In this document: piece after piece, positions 33,059 to 53,224 of the stretch
Position numbering within the stretch: the first letter of the stretch is position 1
How the letters are laid out: the number at the start of each line of letters is the position of its first letter
Translations under genes and position numbers: made by a program
Origin: an uncultured Hormoscilla sp.
Lineage (GTDB): Bacteria; Cyanobacteriota; Cyanobacteriia; Cyanobacteriales; Desertifilaceae
Direction: 5' to 3'
DNA: 64,000 bases
Assembly: GCA_963921275.4 (NCBI GenBank)
Contig: OZ001293.3
Location: 2,560,001 to 2,624,000, forward strand
The notes under the pieces: generated by a model
Database searches by the model: none
The model's input: only the letters and a program-made list of their open reading frames with translations
What the model was told of the DNA's origin: nothing

Positions 33059-35024
33059 TCAAGCAAAGGCTGTATAAACTCTTCTTTCTCCAGTAAAAGG
33101 AAGTCTACCATGCCCCATGCGATAATTATCTAGAATTAGTATATCTCCCTCTTGCCAGTTAAATCGTTCTGCGTTTTGCCAATAACTTTTGACAATATGA
33201 TATACATCCCAAAATGCTAAATTAGCACGATCCTCAAAAGCTACATCCATATATCGATATTTGCGATAACCGGGAATTAGGGTGTGTCATCAATCAAATT
33301 GCTTGACAGAAGTAGATGGATACGGTATGGAGTCCTTATCCAGCAATAACAATCAAGAGGGCATGATATGAGACGCTATGGCTTGCGAGACGACCAGTGG
33401 GAACGGATCGAACACCTTTTACCTGGTAAAGAGGGTGACCCAGGCGCTACAGCCAAGAACAATAGATTATTCGTGTTCTGCCGTGTTATATCGATATCGT
33501 GCTGGCATTCCCTGGCGGGATTTACCGGAGTGTTTTGGGGATTTTCGGGTTGTTCATACCCGCCATACCCGTTGGTCTGAAAAGGGAGTTTGGAAGCAGG
33601 TATTCGATGTCTTGGCCTCAGACGCCGATAACGAATACGCCGCGATTGATGCCACCATCCTGCGTGCCCATCAACGAGCGTGCGGGTGCAAAAAAAAACA
33701 CCCTCAGATACGTGCGAAACCCAAGCCATAGGCCGTAGTAAAGGGGGACTATCGACAAAGATTCATGCCACTTGCGATTGCCCAAGGCAATCCCACAGGA
33801 TTTCATCTTACCCCTGGCCAAGCCCACGACGGGAAAGGCGCTGACGTGCTATTGGATAAAATCGGTGAGATTGGCGCGCTGCTTGCAGATAAAGCCTATG
33901 ATGCGGAACAACGTGTGCTCGAGCGCCTGAAAGAGGCGGATTGGATGGCTGTCATTCCTCCAAAAAGTAACCGCACAGAACACAGAGAAGACGATGAAGA
34001 AATGTACAAGTGGCGGCATCTAATTGAAAATCTATTCCAAAAACTCAAGCAATACAGGGCTCTGGCGACACGCTACGATAAAACGGCTCGCAATTTCTTG
34101 GGTGCCATCTACCTCGCGGCAGCTGTAATATGGCTTAATTGATGACACTCCCTAGTTTTTCCCGATAAATTTGCACAAATGTCAGTAAGAATAAGATAAA
34201 AAATACTAACAAACTCCTGAATTTCCTTTGATACTTAGCAACAAACCACGCCTCAATACAAATACCCCAGATGTGAAACACAGGGAGCCGTCCTGTCCAG
34301 ACAATTTCCTTGGCGATCGGATGAGAGTTAATTGTCGGCATCGGACAAGAAACAATTAATTCACCGTTAGTAAGCTACTCGATCTGTCGCCCGACATCAC
34401 GACATTTTGCCTCTATTAAATCCCGATCATCAGTATTGAATACATCTGGCCAAGATTTAGCATAACGAAACCAAGGCCACTTCCATAATCTCACGTCAAA
34501 TAATCTTTTCTGTGTACTTAAAAGTTTTGTGACCAAACGGCGGTGAAAACACTTCTGCTGTAACTGTTCCGGTAAATCTGATAAAACTGATTTCATTCAT
34601 ATTAATGACAGGAGTTTCACCATCGCTGGCAGCAACTTGAGGGCAAAAAAACAATATATAAGCAGGTTTATCTAATGGGGAGTAAGATAATTCTGTATGA
34701 CTCAGGAATTGGCACATAACTTGGTAATTCAGAAGCATTCCAGATATATTCAGTAACCTTTTGACGGGGTGCCCCACCTGGATATTGATTTTGCAGATTC
34801 GGGAAAATACTTAATCCCACTTGTTGAAATTGCTTGGGAGTTTTCACTTCATATCCTCGAATAGCGATCGCCCCATGATTGGTTATAGTCTCCTTGAGTT
34901 CGTGTTGATGATTGTTGAGATAATCAAGTAGGGACTGCAAATCTGTAGCATTTTGTTTAGCCGTTATTATGGGAAGGCTTTTTGTCAATTGTCGATCTTG
35001 TCGATCGTCTTGATTAGGCTTCAT
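33059..35024 (-). pseudogene. TauD/TfdA-family Fe(II)/2-oxoglutarate dioxygenase, split by IS5 and frameshifted
   Basis: HGAIAIRGY, SHTELSY, FFC...GETP, WQEGDILILDNYRMGHGRLPF; removing the IS and one TA rejoins YREKL-IPGYRKYRYMD in frame. Confidence 0.88.
33280..34152 (+). mobile_element. IS5-family element, copy 1 (873 bp)
   Basis: TIR gggtgtgtcatcaat / attgatgacactccc, TA duplication; [46 protein letters not shown]. Confidence 0.95.
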
Positions 35025-37240
35025 TTTTGTTAACCTCCTTATTATCAACTCTTGTGGAAGTGAAAAGTTGAGCAATTAAATAAACTGCCATTCCCGCCGC
35101 CATACCGGGAAGCGTTTCGTTAACCCCATCGGACAGCTTCAATTCTATCCAGGTCAAAGCTGTACCGATGCCCACTAGCATCATGGCGATCGCCACGGGC
35201 GCACTTACGTTTTTCTGCCAAACCCGCAGGACCAATAACGGACCCAGACCAGATGCTAGGGCCGACCAGGAGAAAATTACCAACGCAAATATGTTGTCTG
35301 GAGCCAATATGGCGATCGCCACAACCAGTATTGTCACTAACAGAGTCCATAGCTTTGCCAGAGTATAAGAATTGACAGCGGCAGAAAAAATATCTCGACC
35401 CAGGGTAGCAGAACAAGAGAGAATCTGAGAGTCAGCAGTGAAAATGTGCGATGAGTTCTAGCCTAACGTAGTCAAACACGGAACGCTAGCCTAGGAAACT
35501 AGGAACTCTGATATTCATGGGGGTTCAATTCCTCTCCCCCAGGTACGGGGGTGACACCGGTCCTCAGTGCTGCGGAGCAACATCACCGTGGTGCCAAGCG
35601 AGGACTTAAATGTAGGATAGCTGGCAGCCTAAGCCGGTGACGCCGCTAGGAAAGATGGCCAAGGTTAGAGCAAGCGAACCCATGCAAGCCTCGTAAAGCT
35701 AAACCAGCGAAATAAGGCTTTATGCGCTGGCCCAAAAGGGGAAGTAGTTAGTATTGGTTATATTTTCTGGCCAATATCGTATTCAAAGAACTACCGGGGT
35801 ATAGTGGGGACCTAAAGTCATCGTGAAATGGTATCAGGGAACGAAGTAACCCCTCGTGTGCTGTCCATCGGGACAAGTCAGATGTGGAGCGAATGCCACG
35901 GGTGGGAAAGATGGCCCGAGAAGCTAATGCCTGGAGTAATGTCCACGGATAGGGATACGGATACGTATCCGCAGACGCGGGTCGGTGATAGTTGGAAACC
36001 TTCGGTAAAAGTAACCTTAAATACGCAGCGGTACTGAGTCCGGCGCTAGCTGGGCGACAGTTTGGATAAGTCCTCTGGACAAAGGGGTGAAGTAGCAGGA
36101 GGCAAGGGATAACAGGAGCAATCCTCAGTAAACCTACCCGTGACAAGGGCCAACTACCCAGTAGCCGTGTGCGGCTCCAGTCGCATGCACGGTTCCTCAA
36201 GGGAGGGTTGGGGAGCGATTCCCAGCGAGACCCCTAATAGTTCCCGCAAACAGTCCTGCCAACATCACTCCCACCAAGCCAACTGGTAATAATTCTAGTG
36301 CTAAATAGGGCAGGGTCAATTCCGGACCCCCTCCACTCATCAACTCTGGCATCAAGACTCTGCCTGTCAGTCCGATCGTCGTCGCCGTCAAGGAATTAAC
36401 CAGAAAGCAGATGCTTCTCACGTTGTTAGCCAAATCCATGTTATCTTCAGAATCGATCGCCATTGCCCGCACCATAATGTGAGGTTGACCGACTACGCCC
36501 AAACCGCTAACCAACCACCCGATCGCAAAAGGCAATACACCCCAGGCTAGATTTGGTGGATTCAAACTGACCAATGCCGGGTCAATAACGCCAAGTTTTC
36601 GACTCAATTCCATCACGCCACCGCAACTAGCAACCGCCACCACTGACAGCAGCAGTAAGGAACCAACCATCAAGATACCCTGGGCCGCATCGGTCCAGAT
36701 GGAGGCGCGGATACCCCCAGAAAAACAGTAGATGATAACGATGAAGGCTCCCAGTACGATACCAAAATAATAGTTCCAACCAAAGATCGCATTCAGGGCC
36801 TTGCTGCCAGCTACCAGTTGGGCGGCGGCATAAGCACCCAGAAACGCTATAGTAATTATCCCCGAGAGTGCGGCGATCGCCCGACCTGATTTTGCGGCCA
36901 GGAAAGAGGAGAAAGTCTCCGCATCCCTTTGGGCAGATATTTTTCTTAACCGCTTGCCCACCAACCACCAAGAGATATGCTGTCCCACCGTCGCGCTAAC
37001 AATACACCATATAGAAGCCAATACTAGTTTGTAGCTAAAACCGACCACACCTGCAAATAGAAAGCCACTCTGAGTGGTTGCCATCGCCGATAGCCTCGTC
37101 AGCCAGGGATTTACATTTCTGCTAGCTAGCAGGTAATCTGTAGTGGTCTTTTGCTTGCGCAACAGCGCCAATGTTCCCACCAATACAAATAATAGGAGAA
37201 AGGCGACGAAAGTAACCGCAATAGATGTTCTATCGTTCAT
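35014..37240 (-). pseudogene. Na+/proline-type symporter (SSS) interrupted by an antisense group II intron
   Basis: Joining 37240-36239 to 35445-35014 gives a 477-aa frame (...GLFAGT-IFTADSQILS...) paralogous to 45772-47193. Confidence 0.9.
35446..36238 (+). mobile_element. ORF-less group II intron, type B (793 nt)
   Basis: 5' GTGCG; D5 agccgtgtgcggctccagtcgcatgcacggttc; D6 ending gacccctaat; EBS1 ATTTTC (35762-35767) is complementary to the 5' flank GAAAAT. Confidence 0.92.
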
Positions 37241-37346: not shown

Positions 37347-38283
37347 TTACACATTGATAGCCGACTTACTCGATAAAGCAAGATAAGCCCCGAGCAAAAT
37401 TACTACAAAACTCACCAAAGTAGAGCCGCCGATGGTTTCCGAGAAAATTGCCCAAGCTTCCAAGGAGCTAAGGACGGGAACCAGCAGACTGCATAAGGAG
37501 GTTAATCCTGAAGATAATCGCTTGAGGCTATAAGCAAAAAGTCCCAGACCTAGCACTTGGCAGATCAAGGCTAGACCCATTACCGAAACCCACCCACTTA
37601 GGGAATAGGGAAAAAGCATATCTTCGGTGAAGATAACAACGGGTAAAACCAACACCGAAGCGATCGCAGAAACCCAAGTTATAATAATTATATAGTTCTC
37701 TTTAGTTCGCAGTTTTTCTACCAACGTATAAAGCAAAAAACAATGCTGATAGTAATGCTGCTAGATCGCCTGTAATCTTGTCACTGGCGGATTCAAAATC
37801 GTTTACTACTAGGAGACCAGCGCCAGCTATTGCTATAACCATGCCGAGAATAAATCTCTTGTCAAAGCGCCTAACCACCCCCCTAAGATGACGAACGTCA
37901 AATAATGCATGAAGGTAGAGTTGGCAACGCTAGTTTTAATTAGGGACCATGCCCACAGTATGAGAGCTACAGATATAACAATTCCTGCTGCTAGCAATAG
38001 CCCCAGTGGCTCAATGCTGTAGGGCTGCGGTTTGATTGGTTGCTTGTCAAAAAGTCGCCCTCGAACGACCAATACTCCATTCCACAATCCCAAGGTGACA
38101 GTAGCCACCCAAAAGCGATTAAAGATGGTAGCATTGGGAACTAGTTCCCCTTCGCTTAAGCTGATAAAAATGGGGGCGAAAGATATGGCTATTACGCCGA
38201 CCCCTAATGCCGCGATCGCCCACATAGTTTCTGTATCGATTTGCTGTTGCACGTACTAATTTAATTCGTAGGGTTGCGAACAT
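37347..38283 (-). pseudogene. EamA/DMT transporter, frameshifted paralogue of 41556-42506
   Basis: Same protein recognisable in three or more frames. Confidence 0.85.
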
Positions 38284-38370: not shown

Positions 38371-40285
38371 TCACAGATTGGTATACTTAAACTTAGAGCC
38401 ACAAGCTACAGGAATCCGTCTCGCTGCCCCACGCCATAACTCCAATGCCACATCGGACAAATTTTGACCATCCGCCTGGAGCATCCGCGAGATCATGCTA
38501 ATATTGCCAAAAGACCAAAACAAGCCCGCCTCCAGCAGATACGGCTCGTTGGTTTCGGCATGCACTCTGAAGTCATACAGGGAGTAATCGCGACCGCCCA
38601 AAGCTATATGTGCCCGCTTGGCTGCATCAGAGATTTTCTCCCATAAAGAAGGCGTGACATTCCCCGGACAGACGGGTTTCACTGCTGGCTTGTCAGGTTG
38701 TTTCCTGGGCAGTCCGTCCCCTTGCAGGTCATACTTATCACGTACAGTTCTAATGGGATTGTCCTTGGTGACTAAATACTCGATCGTCGGCAGCACCCAT
38801 AACTTCCCCTCACGTTCGACTACCCCCACGCGCAGTTCCCGTCCGGGGATGTAATCTTCTACCAACAAGGTCTCGTCATGTTCAAACCCCACCCGCAATG
38901 CTTCAACTATTTGATCTTCTTCCCAAACCAAAGTCAAGCCCAAAGAATTATCTTCCGAGTTCGGCTTCACCATAAATGGGGGCTGCATGGTCACGGTATC
39001 CCCCTGGCGCACAACTTGGGCCTTGGCCACCGGGACACCAGATGCTGACACGACGCTTCTGGTTTGAGCTTTGTTAGTTGCCAGGGCAGTACAACTAGGT
39101 GGCGACCCCACTACTGGTAGCCCGAGGATGTCCTCGAAGAATCCACGGAAACTAATCATCCCTGGGACACAGAACATATGCGGCACTACTACATCCACCT
39201 CCGGTAGCCCCGCGATCGCCTCTTGGAGGGGCATCTTCTCTGATGGATGGGGTCGAGCCGGGAATCGCTTCCCGACCCTCCCTTGAGGAACCGGACTTGC
39301 GATTTTCACCGCATCCGGCTACTGGGTACTAGGCCCTTTTCATAGGTAGACTTAATAGGAATTACTTCCGTTAGCCCTTGCCGCCTGTCTTTTCTTCCCT
39401 TTCCTGGTTTAGCGAGTGGTTGTTCTGATAACCGTTAGTATCACCATTTTCAAGTCAGTTTTACCAGTTATCCATACCTTATCCTCCACTTGCGTTTCGG
39501 ATTAGTTCCGTGGCTTTTTAGGATTACTCATTCCAGCAGCTTCCTAGTATCACCGACCCACGTCAGCGCTGGCTACCCAGCATCATCTACATTACTGTAG
39601 ATGTTATCCCAGGAATTACCCCGGGCATTCGCTTCTTGGGCCATCCCTCCCCCCGTGGCTTGCGCTTAACATCTAACTTGTCCTGATGGACAGCACACGA
39701 GAGGTTACTTCGTTCCCTAACAACATTTCGCGATACCTTTAGGTCCACACTATACCCCGGGAGCTATTTGAGTACTATATTAGCCAGAGTCTAAAACTAA
39801 TACTAGCTACCATTTCCTTTTTAGGCCAGCGCATATAGCCTTATTTCGCTGGTTCCTTATAACGAGGCTTGCACATGTTTGCCTGCTCTAACCTTGGATA
39901 TCTTTCCTAGCGGCGTCACCGGCTTAGGCTGCCAGTTATCCTACATTTGAGTCCTCGCTTAGCACCACGATGATGTCGCTTCGTAGCACCGAGGACCGGT
40001 GTCACCCCCGTACCTGGGGGGAGGGGAATTTAACCCCCATGCGGTCAGAGTTCCCGGCTAATGAAACCGGGCTAGCGTTCCGTGTTTGACCACGTTAGGC
40101 TAGAACGAATCGCACAGACTGTCTAAGGATGCACCTAGCTGCCAAAGACCATCCGGGTGTACCACGGCGTAGTAGCTACTGACACCAATTGGTTGCACTA
40201 CTTCCCTTGCGTAGATTACCGACAGGTTGTAGTAGAAGTCGGATACGCGAGAACCTGCTAGGTGCAAAACTCGCAAGCAAGGCAT
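38371..40285 (-). CDS. mysD: MysD-type D-Ala-D-Ala-ligase-like ATP-grasp enzyme, copy 1 (exons 40285-40116 and 39244-38371; 347 aa if spliced)
   Basis: MPCLRVLHLAGS..DFYYNLS..YA, PHMFCVPGM, VKP..EDNSLG, YSLYDFRV, LEAGL; MAA cluster context. Confidence 0.85.
39245..40115 (-). mobile_element. ORF-less group II intron, type A copy 1 (871 nt), sense orientation in mysD
   Basis: 5' GTGCGATTCG; D5 agccggatgcggtgaaaatcgcaagtccggttc; D6 gggtcgggaagcgattcccggctcgaccccatcc; no long ORF. Confidence 0.95.
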
Positions 40286-40342
40286 TGTGTCTGATATCAT
40301 CACCAATTTTTCTGTTGTACTTGAGTTTGCTCACATATCATA

Positions 40343-40425
40343 TTAAGGGAAGATGTTTGTTTATCTTTGCTGAAAAGCATTGCCACTCCATCAACAATCA
40401 TATTAGCAGCCATGACAGGAAGCAG
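40343..40425 (-). pseudogene. vestige of the SSS symporter 3' end
   Basis: tttgtttatctttgctgaaaa...tccat.aacaatcata matches ~45783-45830. Confidence 0.65.
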
Positions 40426-40498: not shown

Positions 40499-41551
40499 CT
40501 AGGGTACCATACTAAATTCCATTGCCGACAGGTTAGTTTTCGTGTGAACCACCTTTTCTAGCTGAAAACCACTAGCCTTAAACAAATCCTTAAATTCTTG
40601 TTCCGTGCGCCAGTTGCCTCCCGGGTTGGCAACCATCAACTGCACTGCAAAAAGAGCTGGTATTGTCCCATCCGGACATTCTACTGGATCTCCTAAATCT
40701 GGCACTAAGGTTTGTAGAAGTAATATTTTCCCATCTTTGGGGAGAGCTTCTTTACACCGACTCAGAACTTTCAGAGCATTTTCTTTATCCCACAGGGAGA
40801 GGAAATGTTTCATGACGATCGCATCTGCCCCCTTTGGCAATTCACCAAACACATCTCCACCTACTACTTCCAATGCATCACTGGCAATTCCCTGGCTTGA
40901 CAAAAACTCCAGGGCCTTCTCTACCACGTGAGGCAGGTCAAACAATATGCCCTTGATGCCACATTTTTTGATAATCCTGGAGAGCAGTACCCCCAGACCA
41001 CCGCCAACATCCATGACTTTATTAAAGCAGCTAAAATCATATACTTCAAGTAATGAATCTGTCAGTTCTAAAGTAAAAGCCGTCAAAGCCTTATTGAACA
41101 GATCCTTCATCTCGGGGTTATCCTTAGTAAACTGGTAGACCGTCTTACCATTGACCCGTTCAAAAGGCACTTCCCCTGTGTGCAAACAATCTTCCAGTTC
41201 CTGCCATGGCTGCCACATGCTGGGGACAATAAAATGCATGCCAAAATGTCCTAGAGAAGGTCCCTCATCAGTAACCAGCAAAGCCGACATTTCCGTTTGG
41301 CCAAACACCCGTCCTGGTTTTTCCTCAAGCACTCCTAAATGAGCTAGAGCCCTGAGAATAACGTAGATAATTTCTACATTGGTAGCAGTTTTTTCAGCGA
41401 TCTTCTCCACCGGATGCGGTCCCGACTTTAACAGGTTAGGGATTCCCAATCGCGTGAGGATATAAACGCACATGCTCTGCTGGTAAGCGTAGAACATTCG
41501 GTACAGCTTCTTCTTCGACTCCATTGTGGTATCCCCTGATTTATTTTCCAT
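40499..41551 (-). CDS. SAM-dependent methyltransferase (O-/N-methyltransferase type with dimerisation domain)
   Basis: VMDVGGGLG, LFDLPHVV, GGDVF, RTEQEFKDLF. Confidence 0.9.
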   Translation of the reverse strand: MENKSGDTTMESKKKLYRMFYAYQQSMCVYILTRLGIPNLLKSGPHPVEKIAEKTATNVEIIYVILRALAHLGVLEEKPGRVFGQTEMSALLVTDEGPSLGHFGMHFIVPSMWQPWQELEDCLHTGEVPFERVNGKTVYQFTKDNPEMKDLFNKALTAFTLELTDSLLEVYDFSCFNKVMDVGGGLGVLLSRIIKKCGIKGILFDLPHVVEKALEFLSSQGIASDALEVVGGDVFGELPKGADAIVMKHFLSLWDKENALKVLSRCKEALPKDGKILLLQTLVPDLGDPVECPDGTIPALFAVQLMVANPGGNWRTEQEFKDLFKASGFQLEKVVHTKTNLSAMEFSMVP

Positions 41552-41555
41552 ATGC

Positions 41556-42506
41556 TTACACCTTGATAGCAGATTTGCTCGATAAACCCAGATACGCCCC
41601 TAGCAATATTACCACAAAACTGAGTAAGGTAGCCCCCTTGATATTTTCTGAGAAAATTGCCCAAGCTTCCAGAGCGCTGAGGACTGGAACCAGCAGATCG
41701 CATAAGGAGACAAACCCTGAAGATAATTTATTGAGGCAATAGCTGTAAAGTCCCAGACCTATAGTTTGGCAGATTAGGGCTAGACAAATTACCGAAAGCC
41801 ACCCATTAATCGAATAGGGGAAAAGTCTCTCTTCGGTGAGCATAACGATCGGCAACAGTAAGATAGAGGCGATCGCCTCAGCCCAAGTCATAATAATTAT
41901 CGAGGTCAGTTCCCTGCGCAGTTCTTCTACCAGCAGGGTGTATAAGGAAAAAAACAATGCTGATAGTAATGCTGCTAGATCGCCAATAAGTTGGCCATTG
42001 GCCTCTGAGATATCGCTGACTCCCAGGATCCCAGCCCCTGCCATTGCGATCGCCATACCGAGAATAAATCTCTTGTCAAAGCGCCTACCCCAGATCCACC
42101 AGCCCCCGAGGACGACGAATAAAGGCATCAAATAATGCATCAGAGTAGAGTTGGCGACGCTGGTTTTGGTCAGAGACCATGCCCAGAGGATGAGACCAGC
42201 AGATAAAGCAATTCCTACTGCTAGCAATAGCCCTACTATTCTCATGCTGTAGAGCTGTGGTTTTATGGTATGGTTCTGTTCGGGACGTGCAGCCAAGAGG
42301 ATATTCCATAGCCCAAAGGCGACAGTGGCCAACCAGAAGCGATTAAAGATTGTGGCATTGGCACCGAGTTCCCCTTCACCTAAGCGGATAAAAATGGGTA
42401 CAAAAGATATGGCAATCATGCCCCCGACTAATGCGGCGATCGCCCACATAGTTTCTGTGGCTAAAAGCTGTTGCTGTGGTAATTTCAGTCGCAGGCTTGT
42501 GAACAT
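41556..42506 (-). CDS. EamA/DMT family transporter
   Basis: About 10 hydrophobic helices; ISFVPIFIR, SLTKTSVANST, GDLAALLSA. Confidence 0.9.
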   Translation of the reverse strand: MFTSLRLKLPQQQLLATETMWAIAALVGGMIAISFVPIFIRLGEGELGANATIFNRFWLATVAFGLWNILLAARPEQNHTIKPQLYSMRIVGLLLAVGIALSAGLILWAWSLTKTSVANSTLMHYLMPLFVVLGGWWIWGRRFDKRFILGMAIAMAGAGILGVSDISEANGQLIGDLAALLSALFFSLYTLLVEELRRELTSIIIMTWAEAIASILLLPIVMLTEERLFPYSINGWLSVICLALICQTIGLGLYSYCLNKLSSGFVSLCDLLVPVLSALEAWAIFSENIKGATLLSFVVILLGAYLGLSSKSAIKV

Positions 42507-42637: not shown

Positions 42638-43774
42638 TTAACTATGGCTGTGGAGCAGCCAGTGTAATCCTAATTGAAAAAGATTGCTGAAGAGCACTAT
42701 CATCAACACGGTATACAGGGAGAATCTATCTTTCCCGATCGGAGAATCCTCTATCCCTGTGGGGGTAGACTGAGGCTGTCTTTGGGTGGAACTGGAGATT
42801 ACGGGTAGATCGGCTTTAGCAATTACGGAGGCTCGCTCCTCTTGCAGGCAGCAGACTTTGGTGGTGGAATAGTGAGACCAGCCCCGTTGCTCGGCTTCTT
42901 CATAGTCTTTGACTGTCAAGCTTAAATGGGGAACCTCGATGTTGCCCTGACTGGCCATAGCCAGAGCCAGCCGCAAATCTTTATGCAGCAATTTGACAGT
43001 AAAGGCAGGGCGTGCAGAGATGTCATCAAAGCGTCGTGAGAACCAATAGTTAGGCAGGCCGTGAATGTCCCCGGCGTTCTGACCAAACGAGCCGAAGTGC
43101 AGGGCATCCCAAATGGTTTGTAGCGGCAGTCCTTGGGCTAAACCCAAGGTAATTCCTTCACTCGCGGCTTGGACTGCGATCGCATTGACAGCATTGTGGA
43201 TGAGTTTGCATCGAGTTCCGCTGCTAATCTCTCCACAGTAGAGAACCCGATCGGCCATCAGTTGGAGGATGGGCTGGACTCGCTCGAAGGTTTCCTTCGA
43301 GCCGCTGGCCAGAACGGCTAAACCCATGCCCTTCTGGCTTTGGGCACCTACAGGGCAATCATTAAAGGGGGCATCTAACATCTCAACCCCTAGTTGATCC
43401 ATGGCTTGATGAAGTCTGAGTATTGTTTCTGGAGAGTTAGTGGTAATGTCTACATAGACACTGCCCGATCGCAATCCTTGAGAGAGGTTCTTTTCGCCAT
43501 CCAGCACGGCTGTTATCACGTCCGCTGGAGTAGGTAGGGCGGTAAAGATTACCTCCGCACAACTCGCAAGTTCGGCACAACTTTGGGTGATGCGGGCACC
43601 TATAGACTGCAACTGGACCATGGAATCTGGATTGATGTCATAGACATAGACCGAGTAGCCAAGGGCTAGAAAATTAGCGGCTTGTCGTCCTCCAATATTA
43701 CCGCAACCGACGATCCCAAGGGTGGGATAATTGAGGGGCGAATCAGTCTCTGAACTGTTGTTGCTTGGTGACAT
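42638..43774 (-). CDS. beta-hydroxyacid dehydrogenase family NAD(P)-dependent oxidoreductase with a C-terminal hydrophobic tail
   Basis: GIVGCGNIG, DITTNSP, LDAP, CKLIHN, HKDLRLA. Confidence 0.88.
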   Translation of the reverse strand: MSPSNNSSETDSPLNYPTLGIVGCGNIGGRQAANFLALGYSVYVYDINPDSMVQLQSIGARITQSCAELASCAEVIFTALPTPADVITAVLDGEKNLSQGLRSGSVYVDITTNSPETILRLHQAMDQLGVEMLDAPFNDCPVGAQSQKGMGLAVLASGSKETFERVQPILQLMADRVLYCGEISSGTRCKLIHNAVNAIAVQAASEGITLGLAQGLPLQTIWDALHFGSFGQNAGDIHGLPNYWFSRRFDDISARPAFTVKLLHKDLRLALAMASQGNIEVPHLSLTVKDYEEAEQRGWSHYSTTKVCCLQEERASVIAKADLPVISSSTQRQPQSTPTGIEDSPIGKDRFSLYTVLMIVLFSNLFQLGLHWLLHSHS

Positions 43775-43790: not shown

Positions 43791-45720
43791 TTACGTTTTC
43801 TCTGCTTTCGCAGCGTACTTAAACTTGGCACCACAAGCTACACGAGTACGCCGAAGAGCCGCCGCACTCCACAACTCCCATGCCAGATCGGACAAACTTT
43901 GGCCATCCGCCTGCAGCATCCGCGAGATCATGCCAATTTTGCTGAAAGATCCATACAAACTCGCCTCCAGCATATAGGGCTCATCTGTCTCGGCATGCAC
44001 TCGGAAGTCATACAGGGAGCATTCGCGACAGCCCAAAGCTATATGTGCCCGCTTCACTGCATCAGAGATTTTCTCCCATAAAGAAGGCGTGACCTTAGCC
44101 GGACACACTGGCTTCACTGCTGGCTTGTCAGGTTGTTTCCTCGGCAGTCCGTCCCCTTGCAGGTCATACTTATCACGTAAAGTTCTAATGGGATTGTCGG
44201 AGGTGACTAAATACTCGATCGCTGGCAGCACCCATAACTTCCCCTCACGCTCGACTACTGCCACCCGCAGTTCCCGTCCGGGGATGTAATCTTCTACCAA
44301 CAAGGTTTCGTCATGTTCAAACCCCACCCGCAATGCTTCAACTATTTGATCTTCTTCCCAAACCAAAGTCAAGCCCAAAGAATTATCTTCCGAGTTCGGC
44401 TTAACTATAAATGGGGGCTGCATGGTCACGCTATCCCCTCGGCGCACAACTTGGGCCTTGGCGATCGGGACACCATAGGCTGATACTACGCTTCTGGTTT
44501 GAGCTTTGTTAGTTGCTAGGGCCGTACAACTAGGTGGCGACCCCACTACCGGTAGCCCGAGGATGTCCTCGAAGAGCCCACGGAAACTGGTCATCCCTGG
44601 GACACAGAACATATGCGGCACTACTACATCCACCTCCGGTAGCCCCGCGATCGCCTCTTGGAGGGGCATCTTCTCTGATGGATGGGGTCGAGCCGGGAAT
44701 CGCTTCCCGACCCTCCCTTGAGGAACCGGACTTGCGATTTTCACCGCATCCGGCTACTGGGTACTAGGCCCTTTTCATAGGTAGACTTAATAGGAATTAC
44801 TTCCGTTAGCCCTTGCCGCCTGTCTTTTCTTCCCTTTCCTGGTTTAGCGAGTGGTTGTTCTGATAACCGTTAGTATCACCATTTTCAAGTCAGTTTTACC
44901 AGTTATCCATACCTTATCCTCCACTTGCGTTTCGGATTAGTTCCGTGGCTTTTTAGGATTACTCATTCCAGCAGCTTCCTAGTATCACCGACCCACGTCA
45001 GCGCTGGCTACCCAGCATCATCTACATTACTGTAGATGTTATCCCAGGAATTACCCCGGGCATTCGCTTCTTGGGCCATCCCTCCCCCCGTGGCTTGCGC
45101 TTAACATCTAACTTGTCCTGATGGACAGCACACGAGAGGTTACTTCGTTCCCTAACAACATTTCGCGATACCTTTAGGTCCACACTATACCCCGGGAGCT
45201 ATTTGAGTACTATATTAGCCAGAGTCTAAAACTAATACTAGCTACCATTTCCTTTTTAGGCCAGCGCATATAGCCTTATTTCGCTGGTTCCTTATAACGA
45301 GGCTTGCACATGTTTGCCTGCTCTAACCTTGGATATCTTTCCTAGCGGCGTCACCGGCTTAGGCTGCCAGTTATCCTACATTTGAGTCCTCGCTTAGCAC
45401 CACGATGATGTCGCTTCGTAGCACCGAGGACCGGTGTCACCCCCGTACCTGGGGGGAGGGGAATTTAACCCCCATGCGGTCAGAGTTCCCGGCTAATGAA
45501 ACCGGGCTAGCGTTCCGTGTTTGACCACGTTAGGCTAGAACGAATCGCACAGACTATCTAAGGATGTGCCTAGCTGCCAAAGGCCATCGGGGTGTACCAC
45601 GGCGTAGTAGCTACTGACACCAACTGGTTGCACTACTTCCCTTGCGTAGATTACCGACAGGTTGTAGTAGAAGTCGGATACGCGAGAACCTGCTAGGTGC
45701 AAAACTCGCAAGCAAGGCAT
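43791..45720 (-). CDS. mysD: MysD-type ATP-grasp ligase, copy 2 (exons 45720-45551 and 44679-43791; 352 aa if spliced)
   Basis: Close paralogue of copy 1, with the intron at the same position. Confidence 0.85.
44680..45550 (-). mobile_element. ORF-less group II intron, type A copy 2 (871 nt), sense orientation in mysD
   Basis: Sequence appears identical to 39245-40115. Confidence 0.95.
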
Positions 45721-45771
45721 TGTTTCTGATATCATCCCCAATCTACTGTTGTACTTAATTTTTCTCAAATG

Positions 45772-47193
45772 TTAGGAATATTTTTGTTTATCTTTGCTGA
45801 AAAACTGAGCAATTCCATAAACAATCATACCTGTAGTCATTCCCGGAAGCACTTCGTACAGTATACCAGACAAGTTTAGTCCTAATTTCCATGTCAAAGC
45901 TGCCCCTATGCCCGCCACCATCATGGCGATCACCACTGGTGCCGTTACAGGTTTTTGCCAAACCCGGACTAGCAATAGCGGACCGAGACCAGAAGCTAGG
46001 GCTGACCAAGCAAAAATTACCAATGCGAATACATTATCATCTCCTGCCAACGCCATACTCAAAATTATCATTGTTACCGTCAGGGTTCCCAGTTTTGCCC
46101 ACTTGTAAGACTGGGCAATTTGAGGAAACAAATCCTGGGTTAGAGCTGCCGAACTTGACAGGATCTGAGAGTCAGCCGTAGATATCGTCGCAGCAAACAG
46201 TCCCGCTAGCATCAATCCTACCAAGATCGCTGGCAACAATTCTAGGGATAAATAGGGCAGTGCTAACTCCGGATCCCCATTAGACATTAATTCTGGTAGC
46301 ATCACTCTCGCTGTTAGTCCTACACCTATTGCACAAAAAGATGCCATCAGACCGCAGATTATTTTGATGTTGCGAGCTTTAGCTATACTATCGGCAGAGT
46401 CGATCGCCATACCTCGCACCAGGATATGAGGTTGACCTACCACCCCAAACCCTGCTGCTATCCAACCGATGAAAAAAGGCAACAGTCCTAACTGAAGGTT
46501 TTGCGGACTTAAGGAAACCAGTGCCGGGTCTATCTCGCCCAGTTTTCTCCATATTTGGACTACGCCACCGCTGCCAGCAACTGCAACTACCAGCAGCAGC
46601 AGCAAGGAACCGATCATCACCACTGATTGCGCTGCATCCGTCCAGATGGAGGCGCGGATACCTCCAGAAAAACAATAGATGACCACAATGACCGCCCCTA
46701 CTATTATACCCAAGTTGTAGTTCCACCCGAACACCGCATTTAGTGCCTTGCTACCTGCCACCAGTTGTGCTGCCGCATAGGTTCCCATCAAGGTAATAAT
46801 AATTAAAGCTGAGACCTTTGTAATCGGGCGAAACCCCTTTGTTTCTTGACCGAGTAAGGATGAGACTGTCTCGGAAGCAGTTAACTCCGATATTTGCCTT
46901 AACCGTTTGAAAACCAACCACCAAGCAATATAATCTCCTATAGCCCAGCCGATTGTCAACCATAGGGCCGAAATTCCTGCCTGGTAAGCGAAGCCTACCT
47001 CCCCGATAAACAAAAAGCCGCTTTGACCTGATGCCTGAGCCGATAGGGCCGTCAGCCAGGGATTGACATTTCTGCTAGCCAGCAGGTAATCACTCGTCGT
47101 ATTTTGCTTGCGGGTCGCAGAATATATTCCTACCATAGTAAATAATAGCAGAAAGGCGATGAATGTCACTGCGATCCCAAATTTATTATCCAT
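45772..47193 (-). CDS. Na+/proline-type symporter (SSS/PutP-like)
   Basis: DYLLASR, SGGIRASIWTD, GQPHILVR, AATISTADSQIL. Confidence 0.92.
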   Translation of the reverse strand: MDNKFGIAVTFIAFLLLFTMVGIYSATRKQNTTSDYLLASRNVNPWLTALSAQASGQSGFLFIGEVGFAYQAGISALWLTIGWAIGDYIAWWLVFKRLRQISELTASETVSSLLGQETKGFRPITKVSALIIITLMGTYAAAQLVAGSKALNAVFGWNYNLGIIVGAVIVVIYCFSGGIRASIWTDAAQSVVMIGSLLLLLVVAVAGSGGVVQIWRKLGEIDPALVSLSPQNLQLGLLPFFIGWIAAGFGVVGQPHILVRGMAIDSADSIAKARNIKIICGLMASFCAIGVGLTARVMLPELMSNGDPELALPYLSLELLPAILVGLMLAGLFAATISTADSQILSSSAALTQDLFPQIAQSYKWAKLGTLTVTMIILSMALAGDDNVFALVIFAWSALASGLGPLLLVRVWQKPVTAPVVIAMMVAGIGAALTWKLGLNLSGILYEVLPGMTTGMIVYGIAQFFSKDKQKYS

Positions 47194-47279
47194 TGTCAGT
47201 TTGTAGGGTGGGCATTGCCCACCAAGTTAGATGGCACTGACTTAAGGTTGGTGGGCGGTGCCCACCAACCTTCTGCGCC

Positions 47280-48493
47280 CTAGTCTCCGCCCAATTCTAC
47301 TAGCTTACCTATATTAAAATCAATCTTCACCCAACCTTTCAATTTTCTCATATTATTCAGCAGGAGTAATGGTATTTGCCAGTGGTGGACCATCAAAAAC
47401 GGCAAGGGGTCATTCACCTGGAAGATCCCATCCGTTCCCTTGATTATCTTATTAAACCACCCCTTGAGTTGCCCCCAAGATCTAATTCCCGTCAGTCGCC
47501 AGAGTTCGTGATATGTCCAATAGGTAGGTTTACTCTCAGGAAGTGGCTCAATGGGCGGTTTCCGATCGTCCTTGCTATCCTGAATATATGCATCCGCGAC
47601 CCCAGGATGATTGTAAAACATGGTGATTGCCGTGTGGGTGCGCGGGTTACATTCTACTGGATAAACTTTCCCATCTTTCGTCTGAATAACATCTAAAGAA
47701 ATTTGTCCTGTCAGGTTTAATGCCTTGACAAACTGCTGCACCCATTGGAAAATATCCTGGTTATCCACTTGCTCGTAATTTACCTGAAAGGGAGAAGACC
47801 GCGAACAGCATGCAGTCTGACGATCCCCTTCCTGACCGTACTGTGGGTACAATATTCTTGTCCGCGAATAAATTCCTGCATGATCCAAGGTTGGGACTCG
47901 CTGATGGGCAATCCCTTGACAAAACTTGCCATTTCCTCTAGGCTACTCATGGGCAGTTTCGTCAGATCCAAGCGGTAAACTGAGTTATAGGCGATACTCT
48001 TAATAATGTACTGACTGCCATCGGCGGTAAAGTCAAAGTTCAGCACTTGTTCGGGGTCTGTAATCAAAAATGCTTTTGGCGCAGTTAAACCAAACTCCCT
48101 CGCCTTTTGACAAAATGTAAACTTGTTATCTAACATCTCGGTAATCTCAGCATCAAAGGTTAACGCCTCGCAGTGAGGTGATAACAATGATTTCGCGATC
48201 GAGTCGTAGTAACTGGCAACGGGACTGGATACGGGAATAAAGACATCAATCTTTTCCTGCTTGACAATATCCAATAATCCCTGACAATAGCTGTTCGGGT
48301 CAATTTCGGGTGCTGGCACGGTGAAAAATCCCTTGACCGCCCGAGAAAAGCGATGTCCTGATAACCAGTATTTATGAGTTTCTACCAGAAACACTGTATG
48401 TCCGGCTGCGTGAAAGCAACGGGCCAGTTGCAGCGCTTTTGTCATCTTACCACCCGTAATCAAGATATTTTTGGGATTTGCCGCAACCACCTT
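47280..48493 (-). pseudogene. mysC: MysC ATP-grasp (mycosporine-glycine synthase), lacking its N-terminus and frameshifted near 47810
   Basis: ILITGGKMTKALQLAR, ETHKYWLSGHRFS, ECNPRTH, IDFNIGKLVELGGD. Confidence 0.92.
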
Positions 48494-49113
48494 TTTCTTA
48501 TCGGCATCGATAAACACCAAGTCAAAGGACTCCGAAGCATTTGCCAATTGGCGCAGGGTCTCTAAAGCCGGTGCTACCTTGACAGTAATTTTACTTCCGT
48601 GGGGGGACTCTTGGAAACAGTTTTGGCAAAGTTAGCCACATATTCATCCACCTCACAGGCAACCAGGAGTCCATCTTCTGGCAGGGCCTCTGCCATGGCC
48701 AGGGCCGAATATCCGGTGAACATGCCGATTTCCAAGATCCGTTTTGCCCCCGTCATGTGGACAAACATCTTCAGAGTTTGTCCCTCGACATGTCCCGAAA
48801 GCATCTCCTGTTCTAACTGTCGCACTAGCTCCCCATCTGAGAACCTTTTGCTCCAATCTTCTGAGGCCGTTTTGAGTGCCAATGCTGTCAAGGCGGGGGA
48901 CTCGGCAGTACTGCACTTATTCAGATAAGGTTCTATTCCTGCTGCCAGATCGTAGGCTTTTTGAACAGCAGCGGCCAGTTCTGCTGGCACCTTGGCGTCA
49001 GAGAGCATCTGCACTGCGCTGGCCAGATCTTCTACCAAGATACCCAAGGGGGTGACAGGTCTGGCTGTCTTTTCTTTCACAACCGTCGCGATCGTCATGC
49101 ACTCTTCTCCCAA
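48494..49113 (-). pseudogene. mysB: MysB O-methyltransferase, frameshifted near 48620 and C-terminally deleted
   Basis: TARPVTPLGIL, LEQEMLSGHVEGQTLKM, LEIGMFTGYSAL, FDLVFIDADK. Confidence 0.92.
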
Positions 49114-49732
49114 ATTTGTTCAAAAATAGACATAAATCCTGAAATATTGAAACTACCTCTAGCTCTGACAGTCTTGACTCTCACGCTTCTTAACCCTGTT
49201 TAGAGCGGTTGGAACTCGTCTGCCCACCGGTTATAGATGACGATCGCCGGATAGAAACGGAACACGGAAGCTTTTCCCTTCTATAATTATTTCCTGGGAG
49301 TGTGGTCAAAAGTAGTTGGTTTAGTATATAATGGATATTTTCAGCGTCCAGTTGTCAAGAGGTTCTCATTAATGATATTTATTAATATTATTAAATTATT
49401 CCCAGTTATCCCTAGGCAAGATCAGTAAAAATACTCAGAAAAATATCTGGACATGGTCCCCAGGGATGTGATAGGGTTTGGCTGTTAAGCAATTGTCTAA
49501 TACCATTTTGTTAAACATCTGATAGACTTGACCGTAGCATAGATTAGAGACGGGAGCCTCCGAATAGCGCAGCGTGTTCCCAGGTTCTACCTGGGAACGA
49601 GAGAGTAGGGGTTTCTTCTCTATCAATTGTTTATGAAATTGGTATAACGTTTTTCATAGCTCTGGCGCGAGCGCGTTTTCAAGCGTGACAGCAGATTGTG
49701 ACTGAAATCTAAAGAGGAAATTTTCCGATCCG

Positions 49733-50731
49733 ATGGCAAAAGAAACATTCGACTTTGTTATTCCACTCTACCGGTTGCGTTGGAACACGCGAGCTGTTCT
49801 GGAAGGACTGACTCACCACTACAAGCCCCGGGCAATTCACATAATTGCCCCGGAAACAGAAGTGCGATCGCTCGATCCCAAGGTTAAGGAATGGCAAGTT
49901 GCTCCAGTCTATACCCACGAGGAGGAAGACTTTTTTCACAAGAGTGGTCTGACAAAGGACGCGATTTGCTCGGAACTGGATTTAGGCAAATCCCTTTATA
50001 CCTCTGGGTGGTTCTATCAGCAGCTATTAAAACTCGGTGCTTCTGAGGGCATTGATGACCTGAGTGAATGGTTCTTTGTCTGGGATAGTGACCTACTGCC
50101 AGTAGATACTTGGCCACTCATCCTCGAACATCAGCAAACTATAAAGCACGCATTTGCACTTCTTCAACACAATAAATGGGGTAATGCTCATATCGTGTCA
50201 AAGTGGGCTGAGTGGATTCGATCAGTGCTTGGGGTTGAGCCAGTTACAGACCAGGAAGGAACCTTGATTCCACATCACATGTGGTTTAAGCAGGAGTATC
50301 TGGCATCATTTAAGCAGCAAGTAAAAAACTACTTTCAATCAGACGATAGCTGGCTGCTGTTGATGATGCGCTCTGCCAATAAGTTTGAAACCTTTAGTGA
50401 ATATTGGTCCTACGTTTCCTGGGTGGCGGCGAAAGCTCCTGCTGACCTAGCCTTTCACCCCTACGAACAATACGGGGCTACCACCGAGCGATTTTTTGAT
50501 GACGGCACTGGTCTGTTTTCCACTACCCTTAAGAGCAAGCGATCGATAGAATCGGACTCAGAGTTCTTTTCTCCGACCTATGCAGAGATAGAATCGTTTA
50601 TTCAAGGAGAATACGAAGCAGATGCGCTGCCGTCATCTTTATCTTTTGAAAGTAGCCCACGACACCTTAAGAAGGACAAAAAGAACATGCATATTGAAGA
50701 GCTACGTTCTCGTTGGAACCCCCGCCAGTAG
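49733..50731 (+). CDS. hypothetical protein with a GT-A-like DxD motif (DUF6492-like)
   Basis: FDFVIP, GWFYQQLLKL, FVWDSDLL, FSEYWSY. Confidence 0.7.
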   Translation: MAKETFDFVIPLYRLRWNTRAVLEGLTHHYKPRAIHIIAPETEVRSLDPKVKEWQVAPVYTHEEEDFFHKSGLTKDAICSELDLGKSLYTSGWFYQQLLKLGASEGIDDLSEWFFVWDSDLLPVDTWPLILEHQQTIKHAFALLQHNKWGNAHIVSKWAEWIRSVLGVEPVTDQEGTLIPHHMWFKQEYLASFKQQVKNYFQSDDSWLLLMMRSANKFETFSEYWSYVSWVAAKAPADLAFHPYEQYGATTERFFDDGTGLFSTTLKSKRSIESDSEFFSPTYAEIESFIQGEYEADALPSSLSFESSPRHLKKDKKNMHIEELRSRWNPRQ

Positions 50732-50863
50732 GACGGGCGTCTCCTCTGTCCATCCCTAGGACGGGCGTCCCGCCTGTCCGGATGTGGTCAGTGGTCAGTG
50801 GCCAATGCAAGAATTTTGAATTGTTTAATAGGTGTTGTGTCAATTAGCGAGGAGGTTACTCAT

Positions 50864-51742
50864 ATGCCAGTAAAAAAACTACAGGCATTTGCCAAGTCTA
50901 TCTATCTGGAGAGGGTCTATCGTTCTATTATCAGAGAGCGGATAAAACAAATGCCGATAATTCAGGAAATGGATCGGATTAGGGAAAGTTCTCGATATCA
51001 AGACCCAAAAAGTTTAATTCCTTTTGGGTATAAGATATATTCGCAAACTGATGAAGACGGAATGATCGCAGAAATCTTCAGAAGGATTGGCTCAACAAAT
51101 AAAGTCTTTGTCGAATTTGGCATTGGGAATGGTTTGGAAAACAATACTATTTCTCTTCTATTTGATGATTGGCAAGGTTTATGGATTGAAGCCTCTTCAC
51201 GTTATGTAAAGGCAATCCGCAAGTATTTTGATCAAATCATAGAAAATGGGCAATTAAAAGTTGTGCAATCATTTATTACCAAGGATAATATCAATGACTT
51301 GATTTACGCCCAGATAAAAGATAAGGAAATCGACCTATTATCGGTTGATATTGATGGCAATGACTATCACGTTCTGAATGCAATAACCTGTATTAGACCA
51401 AGAGTAATCGCGATCGAATATAACGCCAAGTTTCGACCGCCAATTTTATATTGTATGGATTACGATGAATCATATACTTGGGAAAAAGATGATTGCGGTG
51501 GAGCTTCATTGAAGTTTCTGGAGGTAAATTTAGATAAAAAAGGTTATTGCCTTGTGGGTTGTAATATATCTGGTGTCAACGCATTTTTTGTGAGAAAAGA
51601 GCTAGTCGATGATAAATTTTTGGCTCCTTTTACTGCTGAAAATCATTATGAACCCCCAAGGTATTATTTTTCAGGATATTTCGCGGGCCATCGTTCTGCA
51701 TATAAAACCTTGGCAAAATCGCTAACCATGCGCTCCAGTTAA
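50864..51742 (+). CDS. FkbM-like methyltransferase-fold protein
   Basis: YSQTDEDGMI, FVEFGIG, LLSVDIDGNDY, IEYN, GVNAFFV; GAGGAGG RBS. Confidence 0.8.
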   Translation: MPVKKLQAFAKSIYLERVYRSIIRERIKQMPIIQEMDRIRESSRYQDPKSLIPFGYKIYSQTDEDGMIAEIFRRIGSTNKVFVEFGIGNGLENNTISLLFDDWQGLWIEASSRYVKAIRKYFDQIIENGQLKVVQSFITKDNINDLIYAQIKDKEIDLLSVDIDGNDYHVLNAITCIRPRVIAIEYNAKFRPPILYCMDYDESYTWEKDDCGGASLKFLEVNLDKKGYCLVGCNISGVNAFFVRKELVDDKFLAPFTAENHYEPPRYYFSGYFAGHRSAYKTLAKSLTMRSS

Positions 51743-51859
51743 CTTCATTCGCTACCATTGAATACTGTAGGTTGGGTAGAGGGCCAGCGAAACCCAACAG
51801 GGCTTGCTGGTGTTGGGTTTCATGCCCAAACCCAACCTACAACTTAGCGATCGGTCTTT

Positions 51860-53224
51860 TTATTCCAGACCCAGATCGCTGAGGTACATTTCCACTCCTG
51901 CCCCACCATCGGGGAAGTTAGCACATAATGCCTTATGTTCGGATATAGCAGCTTCGAGCAATTCCTGCGGCACTTCTCGGGCATAGTCGCAGTTGCCAAT
52001 GCCGCCCCGAGGTAGGGGTGCCCACAGTCCGCCATCTCCCCGTTTGCGATTCATATTCTTCTGTCCGGAAATCATTAAATCAATGTCTTCCAGGATCGGA
52101 TGATAGACTGCCAAATCGAGGGTGCGAATCAGGGCAATGATCCGATCGCGTTCCGCAGCGGAGATCCAACCCATCATCGTGGCCAAAGTTGCCCCGAAGG
52201 CCATGCCGATGCTCACCGCGTGACCGTGCATCAGCCTCGCCGCGGGTTCATAACGGGGACTCCAAGTGTGACCGTAGGCGTGAGGCCGATCCTGATAGGT
52301 CTCGAACATGTTCGTCCCTTCGTGCTTCATATAGGAGAACAGTTCCCGGTAGATCACCTCATCGGCGATTTCCCCTAACTCTTCGTCTTCTTCAGTGGTA
52401 GCAAAGTGGGTTTCGATCAAGCGCTGACCGTATTTCTCCAGCAACTCAAAGAGAACTTTGTCATCTGTCACCGCCATCTTGATAATTTCGGCCATGCCAT
52501 TGCGGACGTGACCGGTGGGGAGGGTGCGGAATACACTCCGATCGACCAGAGTTAGCACCGGGGGATGATAAGCACCGATGCTGTTCTTGAATTGCTTGCC
52601 GTTGGTACAGGTGCGCGGTGACGGACCTGCATCAATCGCCGCGATCACCGTTGTCGGCACCATCACATAAGGAGTGCGGCGATGCTGTAAAGAACAGGCT
52701 AACCCCGCCACATCGGTGAGGACGCCACCGCCGATCACCAGCACTGGTTCGTTGCGAGACACGTCACAACCATCCTTGCCCAGGAATCCCAAAATACGGT
52801 GGACTGTTTCCGGAGTTTTGTCCGCTTCCCAGGCCCGGATCACCTGCATTTCCAGAGTAATTTCGTTGGTGTCAAAATAGCGACGCACCGACTCTCCGTA
52901 CAGCTCGTTCACGGTTTCGTCGATGACGGCAACACAGCGACCCCGACTATTATAGATTTCCGCCAGGGTGGGGTTTGACGGGTCAAATACCCCATCGACC
53001 AGCTTCACCTTGGCCGTCAGACTGTAGGTTGCAGAGACCTCGAACGATCGACCGTCCTTTCCTGGGAAGATCTGCCCTGAGCCAGTGTACCACTCTGAGG
53101 TACGATATATAGGGTCATGCTTTACCCCAATGTCCTTGTTTTCTGAGCGCTCGAACTGCTCTCTCAACTCTTCCTTGATCTTCTCTGTCAGTTCTGTTTG
53201 AGCGATTGCAGTTTGTAGACTCAT
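51860..53224 (-). CDS. mysA: sedoheptulose-7-phosphate cyclase (DDGS/MysA-like, divergent)
   Basis: IGGGVLTDVAG, RNGMAEIIK, AYGHTWSP, HGHAVSIGM; upstream of mysB/C. Confidence 0.88.
   Translation of the reverse strand: MSLQTAIAQTELTEKIKEELREQFERSENKDIGVKHDPIYRTSEWYTGSGQIFPGKDGRSFEVSATYSLTAKVKLVDGVFDPSNPTLAEIYNSRGRCVAVIDETVNELYGESVRRYFDTNEITLEMQVIRAWEADKTPETVHRILGFLGKDGCDVSRNEPVLVIGGGVLTDVAGLACSLQHRRTPYVMVPTTVIAAIDAGPSPRTCTNGKQFKNSIGAYHPPVLTLVDRSVFRTLPTGHVRNGMAEIIKMAVTDDKVLFELLEKYGQRLIETHFATTEEDEELGEIADEVIYRELFSYMKHEGTNMFETYQDRPHAYGHTWSPRYEPAARLMHGHAVSIGMAFGATLATMMGWISAAERDRIIALIRTLDLAVYHPILEDIDLMISGQKNMNRKRGDGGLWAPLPRGGIGNCDYAREVPQELLEAAISEHKALCANFPDGGAGVEMYLSDLGLE

Follow-up and report, generated by a model that had tools for sequence, protein, structure and literature searches.

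A broken member of a conserved, little-studied variant of the mycosporine-like amino acid cluster in Hormoscilla

The stretch analysed here (the window) comprises 64,000 nt of contig OZ001293.3 from the assembly of an uncultured Hormoscilla sp. (GCA_963921275.4) and carries the genes of a cluster for mycosporine-like amino acids (MAAs) at positions 33059-53224. It represents, in broken form, a conserved and little-studied variant of the MAA cluster: very probably an eroding copy of a type at home in marine filamentous cyanobacteria, borne by a Hormoscilla-like sponge-symbiont host. MysA-C yield mycosporine-glycine, to which MysD attaches a second amino acid (PMC10666671). An earlier prediction from the sequence alone had listed on the minus strand mysA, mysB, mysC, a sodium:solute symporter (SSS1), mysD (mysD1), a beta-hydroxyacid-dehydrogenase-like gene (DH), an EamA transporter (EamA1), a methyltransferase (MT), a further mysD, EamA and SSS (mysD2, EamA2, SSS2) and a TauD dioxygenase. 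All named genes were found on that strand and in the expected order by the listing of open reading frames (ORFs), Pfam and tblastn with intact relatives. The reading frames of mysA, SSS1, DH, EamA1 and MT are still whole, five genes (mysB, mysC, EamA2, SSS2 and TauD) are broken, and both mysD genes appear intact provided that the group II intron in each is spliced, the full-length MysD proteins being obtained solely after in-silico intron removal. The notion of an expanded MAA cluster with tailoring and transport genes thus holds for the gene content, which is real and of a conserved type; with mysB and mysC broken and single-copy, the cluster cannot work as drawn.

The core genes were compared with the contig of the metagenome-assembled genome (MAG) of Hormoscilla sp. 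SP12CHS1 (locus L014), which is 92-96% identical to the window at the nucleotide level from mysA to MT. By tblastn, amino acids 1-169 of MysB lie in one frame and 156-203 in another, and 204-276 are gone. Relative to L014 the gene carries a 1-nt deletion at 48620, and a 426-nt deletion fuses it to mysC, taking mysB codons 204-276, the spacer and mysC codons 1-49. In addition, mysC has lost 1 nt at 47809 and, in frame, 24 nt at 47568. Neither an intact MysB nor an intact MysC is encoded. A search of the genome with Trichodesmium proteins (E 1e-10) returned no other MysC, and the best MysB-like match was a 36% identical O-methyltransferase. Since both genes are dead and have no second copy, the gene complement indicates that this strain most likely makes no MAAs de novo. 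MysA is 69% identical to T. erythraeum MysA (tblastn), and the single further DHQS-like match in the genome is 31% identical to MysA.

An assembly error behind the frameshifts was considered and rejected. Logan contigs of runs X1 and X2, possibly from the source sample of the window, show zero differences from it over 45694-49200, and the 426-nt deletion is not a homopolymer error. A contig of the sponge metagenome X4 retains both frameshift bases, the 24 nt and the 426 nt, and its mysD is intron-less. The sister lineage with an intact cluster, represented by L014 and X4, should make MAAs. EamA at 9091-10040 of L014 lies in two frames, one T differing from the window within a run of T, which may be a real frameshift or a MAG error; the SP12CHS1 cluster is otherwise intact.

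Decay extends to the accessory genes. EamA2 contains six in-frame stop codons mid-frame. SSS2 is recovered by tblastn as two pieces (amino acids 1-341 and 338-468) split by a 790-nt antisense copy of a diverged intron, and is uninterrupted in the locus of the Hormoscilla MAG GUM202 (L016), which is 84-97% identical to the window over shared parts at the nucleotide level. TauD has accumulated +1, +4 and -6 nt indels together with an insertion sequence (IS); its L016 orthologue is an intact, IS-free frame of 363 amino acids. The second mysD-EamA-SSS set duplicates the first in diverged form (68-88% nucleotide identity), the duplication being marked by an SSS 3'-end remnant at 40348-40424. The order of TauD and SSS2 differs between lineages through a local rearrangement: in L016 (14211-16991) TauD precedes SSS2, both whole, and in the window (33059-37240) SSS2 precedes TauD. 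The GUM202 EamA adjoining DH is interrupted by about 1.5 kb of inserted DNA.

Conservation of the cluster type was assessed on 39 loci with DH orthologues of at least 68% identity, obtained from a contig scan and described by the gene content of their fetched flanks, and on an even sample of 401 cyanobacterial genomes that includes the window's own. Apart from the two Hormoscilla MAGs, the loci belong to Moorena, Okeania, Trichodesmium, Lyngbya, Coleofasciculus, Calothrix/Rivularia, Dapis, Capilliphycus, Microseira, Scytonema and MAGs, and the best match to the window DH among them is that of SP12CHS1, at 99% identity. At least one of mysA-D is present in the flanks of 35 loci, and a core mys gene or a pair of nonribosomal peptide synthetase (NRPS) and MT in 36, the exceptions being L042 (a 3.3-kb contig), L048 and L051. 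A MysD-like gene occurs in 30 loci, lying no more than 700 nt from DH in 23, and MysD or NRPS in 34; SSS is found in 24, EamA in 21, MT in 17 and TauD in 2. An apparent absence of mysD beside DH in Moorena, Coleofasciculus and Microseira proved to be an artefact of a 45% identity threshold, 38-42% identical MysD-like genes being present in or near these loci. Across the 401 genomes, MysC is found in 56, the MT orthologue group (at least 50% identity) in 12, the window's included, and close DH orthologues in three, all MysC-positive: the window genome, T. erythraeum IMS101 (G274) and a Microcoleaceae MAG (G172). MT orthologues at this identity are present in 11 of the 400 other genomes, and in 9 of these 11 the gene lies within 1.5 kb of a mys-associated gene. 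The co-occurrence of accessory and mys genes elsewhere, on which the original prediction had staked itself, is therefore observed for DH (36/39 loci) and for MT (9/11 genomes). Judged by these neighbourhoods, the accessory genes are part of a conserved but uncommon cluster type.

In intact relatives the type consists of mysA-C, one or two mysD genes, a tailed NAD-type DH, a PutP-like SSS and an EamA exporter; a C-A-T-TE NRPS accompanied by a MysF-type methyltransferase is often present as well, a TauD dioxygenase sometimes. In GUM202, Trichodesmium and others the NRPS is placed between DH and MT, and an orthologue is absent from the window genome, where the best match is 46% identical. The mys locus of T. 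erythraeum IMS101 (NC_008312.1, about 4.612-4.633 Mb; L012, L013 and L038) runs mysA, mysB, mysC, SSS, EamA, TauD, two mysD, DH and MT. It thus shares the gene families of the window in nearly the same order, at 59-77% amino acid identity, but is intact, with a 1331-aa C-A-T-TE NRPS between DH and MT, a tail-less DH and intron-free mysD genes.

The features of the locus in the window are as follows, with the basis of each assignment.
51860-53224, minus strand: mysA, sugar-phosphate cyclase of DDGS/EVS type, 454 aa, whole (Pfam DHQ_synthase and DHQS_C).
50798-51742, plus strand: FkbM-like methyltransferase, 314 aa, whole (weak Pfam Methyltransf_21 match, 23.2 bits).
49733-50731, plus strand: DUF6492 protein, 332 aa, whole (Pfam DUF6492).
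48497-49113, minus strand: mysB pseudogene, 5' two thirds (tblastn; Pfam Methyltransf_3).
47280-48496, minus strand: mysC pseudogene (tblastn; Pfam ATP-grasp).
45772-47193, minus strand: SSS1, PutP-like sodium:solute symporter, 473 aa, whole (Pfam SSF, 210 bits).
45551-45768, minus strand: mysD1 exon 1 (tblastn with the MysD of relatives, aa 2-77).
44680-45550, minus strand: ORF-less group II intron, 871 nt, on the sense strand in mysD1 (Rfam RF00029).
43791-44679, minus strand: mysD1 exon 2 (Pfam Dala_Dala_lig_C; tblastn).
42638-43774, minus strand: DH, beta-hydroxyacid-dehydrogenase-like, 378 aa, whole, with C-terminal hydrophobic tail (Pfam NAD_binding_2 and NAD_binding_11).
41556-42506, minus strand: EamA1, DMT-family transporter, 316 aa, whole (Pfam EamA, 115 bits).
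40499-41551, minus strand: MT, putative MysF-type methyltransferase, 350 aa, whole (Pfam Methyltransf_2 and Dimerisation).
40348-40424, minus strand: SSS 3'-end remnant, 77 nt, ahead of mysD2 (78% identical to 45775-45851).
40116-40306, minus strand: mysD2 exon 1 (tblastn, in-silico splice).
39245-40115, minus strand: group II intron of 871 nt, interrupting mysD2 at the site homologous to that in mysD1 (100% identical to the mysD1 copy).
38371-39244, minus strand: mysD2 exon 2 (in-silico splice).
37347-38252, minus strand: EamA2 pseudogene (in-frame stops).
35029-37240, minus strand: SSS2, interrupted at 36236/35445 by an inserted element (tblastn, two pieces).
35446-36235, plus strand: diverged copy of the group II intron, lying antisense to SSS2 (repeat of 53904-54774).
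33059-35024, minus strand: TauD/TfdA dioxygenase pseudogene (tblastn; comparison with L016).
33280-34152, plus strand: IS5-family element, 873 nt, inside TauD (Pfam DUF4096 and DDE_Tnp_1).
53904-54774, plus strand: further 871-nt intron copy, upstream of mysA (a single difference separates it from the mysD copies).
55008-55880, plus strand: second IS5-family copy, upstream of mysA (99% identity between the copies).
A MIR474 match in Rfam at 51753-51850 falls under the gathering score and is taken as chance.

The DH product displays the N-terminal dinucleotide fold and, in the helical domain, the catalytic Lys and Asn of the beta-hydroxyacid dehydrogenase (HIBADH/6PGDH-like) family. Of 38 aligned orthologues, 37-38 retain GCGNIG, Lys190 and Asn194, and the lysine of CKLIHN, which the original prediction had recognised as the family lysine, is present in the window DH and invariant in 38/38. 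An Asp ending the second strand is invariant or near-invariant in the same orthologues; in Rossmann folds an Asp at this position favours NAD over NADP, and the same preference is suggested for DH. The closest relative in the PDB is HIBADH (E 4e-35). With HIBADH-type enzymes (PDB 5je8, 3cky, 3obb/3q3c) DH shares the two-domain architecture, the GxGxxG motif and the catalytic Lys with its following Asn, and it differs from them in overall sequence (about 30% identity), in carrying DAPFND for APVSGG and in its additional hydrophobic tail. DH stays under every NCBIfam equivalog cut-off (best 142.7 bits against 348), the top models being sulfolactaldehyde reductase and HIBADH. The C-terminal tail (...RFSLYTVL.LVL.SNLFQLGLHWL...) is conserved in 22 of the 36 orthologues with a complete 3' end and in the window DH (codons at 42638-42720; loci L014-L051), and is missing in the DH forms of Trichodesmium, Coleofasciculus, Dapis and GUM202. 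The conservation within the tail sequence hints at a specific membrane partner.

We know of no enzyme that converts shinorine or porphyra-334 to decarboxylated MAAs such as asterina-330, palythinol, palythene and usujirene. In the MysD product, DH might oxidise the beta-hydroxyl group on the Ser/Thr arm, and the resulting beta-keto acid would then lose CO2, leading towards asterina-330, palythinol and palythene/usujirene-type MAAs. Attack on a Ser/Thr beta-hydroxyacid arm, as the original prediction had it, is chemically reasonable and would fit the place of the gene beside mysD. That DH initiates the oxidation and decarboxylation of this arm is a tentative proposal, drawn from family chemistry, from the position by mysD and from two chemotypes in the literature: Trichodesmium contains asterina-330 and palythene, and the sponge Dysidea herbacea with its symbiont Oscillatoria spongeliae contains usujirene and palythene (PMC3083659). 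Coleofasciculus MysD expressed in yeast gives mainly shinorine (PMC11983340).

MT and TauD had been put forward as poorly defined additional enzymes. Both families are indeed present, but they already bear the names MysF and MysI in print, and the TauD of the window is broken and distant from MysI. In the mysF-mysI module of Nostoc sp. UHCC 0926, MysF has 350 and MysI 363 amino acids (PMC10510106, Table S6), and the roles given to them, N-methyltransferase for MysF and removal of the glycine arm for MysI, are predictions, not assays (PMC10510106, PMC10666671). The window resembles the mysF-mysI-mysE arrangement of that strain (PMC10510106) in its 350-aa MT with a methyltransferase domain, and in MT orthologues that are followed by TauD in two loci (L055 and L056), a mysC fragment lying ahead in L056. 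It differs in that the window genome has no NRPS orthologue. MT was classed as putatively MysF-type by size and synteny, and N-methylation, of a palythine-type MAA, is a predicted activity. The Trichodesmium TauD is 58-65% identical to the genes in the MysI position, that is, those beside MT orthologues. The 363-aa TauD of Hormoscilla GUM202 is 25% identical to the Trichodesmium protein (E 3e-32), and by this comparison the Hormoscilla TauD appears to be a distant MysI relative at best; the window TauD, lacking an intact frame of about 363 amino acids, does not qualify as MysI.

The transporters are less specific. SSS1 scores 285.8 bits with the NCBIfam PutP model, whose cut-off is 515.5; PutP and PanF are its nearest models, both under cut-off, and with the model of the SSS superfamily it scores above cut-off (191 against 184). 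EamA, for its part, is a generic transporter of the DMT family. It can be conjectured that SSS takes up, and EamA releases, MAAs or their precursors, and the proposal of such a pair is a guess prompted by the constancy of the two genes in the marine cluster type. Our literature search returned no named MAA transporter and no paper tying a hydroxyacid dehydrogenase or HIBADH, a PutP-like symporter or EamA to MAA clusters, and a search on asterina-330 and palythinol gene clusters gave no link to these families. The words "transporter" and "dehydrogenase" occur nowhere in PMC10510106, and the relevant section of PMC11888242 reports HAD and TauD only.

The two mysD genes are each split by an 871-nt element (45550..44680 and 40115..39245) that starts with GTGCG and contains a group II domain V/VI matching RF00029 at 44.4 bits, against a gathering score of 40. 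The introns are 100% identical to one another, whereas the surrounding exons are about 88% identical at the nucleotide level, a pattern suggestive of separate recent insertions or of gene conversion. At the exact site, L014 and the X4 contig have an intron-less junction. Removal of the introns in silico yields open frames of 368 aa (MysD1) and 354 aa (MysD2), collinear with the MysD of relatives, and the joined sequence reads SLDSLSEKM, as it does in relatives. The 3' end that restores the frame sits 2 nt past the end of the Rfam model, and the diverged copy in SSS2 shows an equal 10-nt spacing there. The spliced MysD2 is 89% identical to MysD1. Nostoc sp. UHCC 0302 also has two MysD paralogues, which prefer Thr and Ser, respectively (PMC11378024); in the window, unlike in that strain, the MysDs are 89% identical and each is split by a group II intron.

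The intron is a prolific component of this genome, in which 140 full-length 871-nt copies reach at least 98% identity and about 102 others, also full-length, have diverged; one further copy in the window, the fourth, lies at 60318-61188. In X1 and X2 the word depth of the intron is a few hundred times that of its flanks. The mysD site fits 11 of 12 positions of the target consensus derived from the flanks of 138 copies. Maturase domains are matched 75 times in the genome, often within frames of about 600 amino acids, so that splicing helpers are available, and we infer that the mysD introns may be spliced in vivo. The copy at 35446-36235 forms a direct repeat with the one at 53904-54774 on the plus strand, at 76-85% identity (78-84% in blastn, in two pieces), and has no Rfam match of its own; being antisense, it cannot splice out of the SSS2 mRNA. 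The IS5-family element encodes its transposase over two frames, DUF4096 followed by DDE_Tnp_1, and occurs 60 times at near full length in the genome, with an identity of at least 98% in 31 cases. The intron at 53904-54774 and the IS at 55008-55880 are both missing from L014. Two IS copies in direct orientation flank most of the cluster, and a composite transposon was considered on these grounds and rejected: they are two of 60 copies, one lies inside TauD, and both are lacking in sister strains. Nothing was found in the locus to suggest that the cluster is mobile as one unit, and our literature search returned no paper linking Hormoscilla with group II introns. Contig C3 of the genome (31,420 nt) has 17.6% G+C, against 42-49% in all others, and might be foreign or organellar DNA.

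Between mysA and mysB, a DUF6492 gene and an FkbM-like gene occupy the plus strand within a 2.7-kb stretch that is missing from L014. Orthologues of DUF6492 (64-77% identical; L090-L095) were found in 6 of 350 other sampled genomes. In four of the six the gene comes immediately after a MysA-type cyclase, 43-48% identical to MysA and the sole such cyclase of its genome; G172 is one of these four, and there DUF6492 is followed by an FkbM-like gene. MysC was not detected at E 1e-8 in three of these cyclase-DUF6492 genomes. One DUF6492 orthologue adjoins mysB-mysC-mysD, together with an FkbM-like gene, and the Trichodesmium DUF6492/FkbM-like pair lies 400 kb away from the mys locus; an FkbM-like gene accompanies DUF6492 in three of the six genomes in total. 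The pair gives the impression of a module of its own, as yet undescribed and linked to the MysA-type cyclase. The motif WDSDLLP is invariant in 7/7 orthologues, and the Atlas neighbours of DUF6492 are named nucleotide-diphospho-sugar transferase. An AlphaFold2 model of moderate quality (mean pLDDT 67.7, from a 7-row alignment) finds GT-A enzymes as its best PDB matches (E about 1e-4, TM 0.3-0.4). DUF6492 is probably a GT-A-fold nucleotide-sugar transferase, an assignment that motif, Atlas names and model offer as a lead and not as a firm fold call. The glycosyltransferases published for MAAs, MysG and MysJ, are members of other families (PMC11378024).

Several explanations compete for the function of this assemblage. 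An active expanded cluster that makes new amino-alcohol, enamine or methylated MAAs in this strain would be in keeping with the presence of all named families, with several whole genes, with mysD genes that become whole after in-silico splicing and with the conservation of the type. It is, however, scarcely credible in the face of a mysB without its last 73 codons and a mysC without its first 49, both frameshifted and with no spare copy, besides the broken TauD, EamA2 and SSS2. The surviving genes could instead serve salvage: with de novo synthesis lost, SSS1, mysD1/2, DH, EamA1 and MT would import, modify and release mycosporine-glycine or a finished MAA of the holobiont. The whole genes are indeed those of transport, second ligation and tailoring, the dead ones include the core, and the intact-cluster lineage is present in sponge metagenome X4. 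Yet mysA, useless in salvage, is also whole, and the lesions look recent, the sister being 92-96% identical. In a genome with 60 IS and 140 near-identical intron copies, random recent decay explains the pattern without selection, which makes salvage improbable.

A third explanation removes DH, SSS and EamA from MAA chemistry altogether and regards them as a solute-handling module, for instance one that takes up and oxidises a small hydroxy acid or an osmolyte resembling proline, and whose only tie to the sunscreen genes would be shared regulation in mat- and bloom-forming marine hosts. SSS is nearest to PutP/PanF and DH to the sulfolactaldehyde reductase and HIBADH models, all below cut-off, and every host with a name is a filamentous form of marine or saline habitats. 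Against such a module, DH orthologues are nearly confined to mys clusters (36 of 39 loci) and stand directly beside a MysD-like gene in 23; the three sampled genomes with DH, out of 401, all have MysC. We consider the solute module rather unlikely.

The most far-reaching reading would join three parts: DH as the missing enzyme with which decarboxylation of shinorine and porphyra-334 begins at their Ser/Thr arm, SSS and EamA as a dedicated pair for MAA uptake and release, and the DUF6492 module, often with its FkbM-like partner, acting on the product of MysA-type cyclases, also where mysC is missing from the genome. Taken as a whole it is put forward with considerable doubt, and several observations weigh against it or against the main account of the locus. 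The substrate loop of the family, APVSGG with its Ser motif, is replaced in the DH group by an invariant DAPFND, and the substrate of DH may consequently be quite different. The role proposed for DH is inferred from family chemistry, gene position and the two literature chemotypes, and the substrates of the transporters are guessed, the top score of SSS being with a proline symporter model. Loci L048 (one side only) and L051 have several kb of flank without a mys gene. Splicing of mysD in vivo is presumed, and as X1 and X2 possibly represent the source sample of the window, their agreement is not an independent confirmation of the lesions.

The cluster type gives a clear candidate for a decarboxylation enzyme and likewise for MAA transport, and it is common to the ecologically important Trichodesmium, Moorena, Okeania, Lyngbya and Coleofasciculus. 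The enzymes concerned are best examined in the intact relatives, the window copy being broken. ORF-less mobile introns occupy biosynthetic genes here, and the reading frames, once the introns are removed, are not destroyed. The intact, intron-free and the broken lineages of Hormoscilla form a natural contrast, which predicts a difference in chemotype between sponge holobionts.

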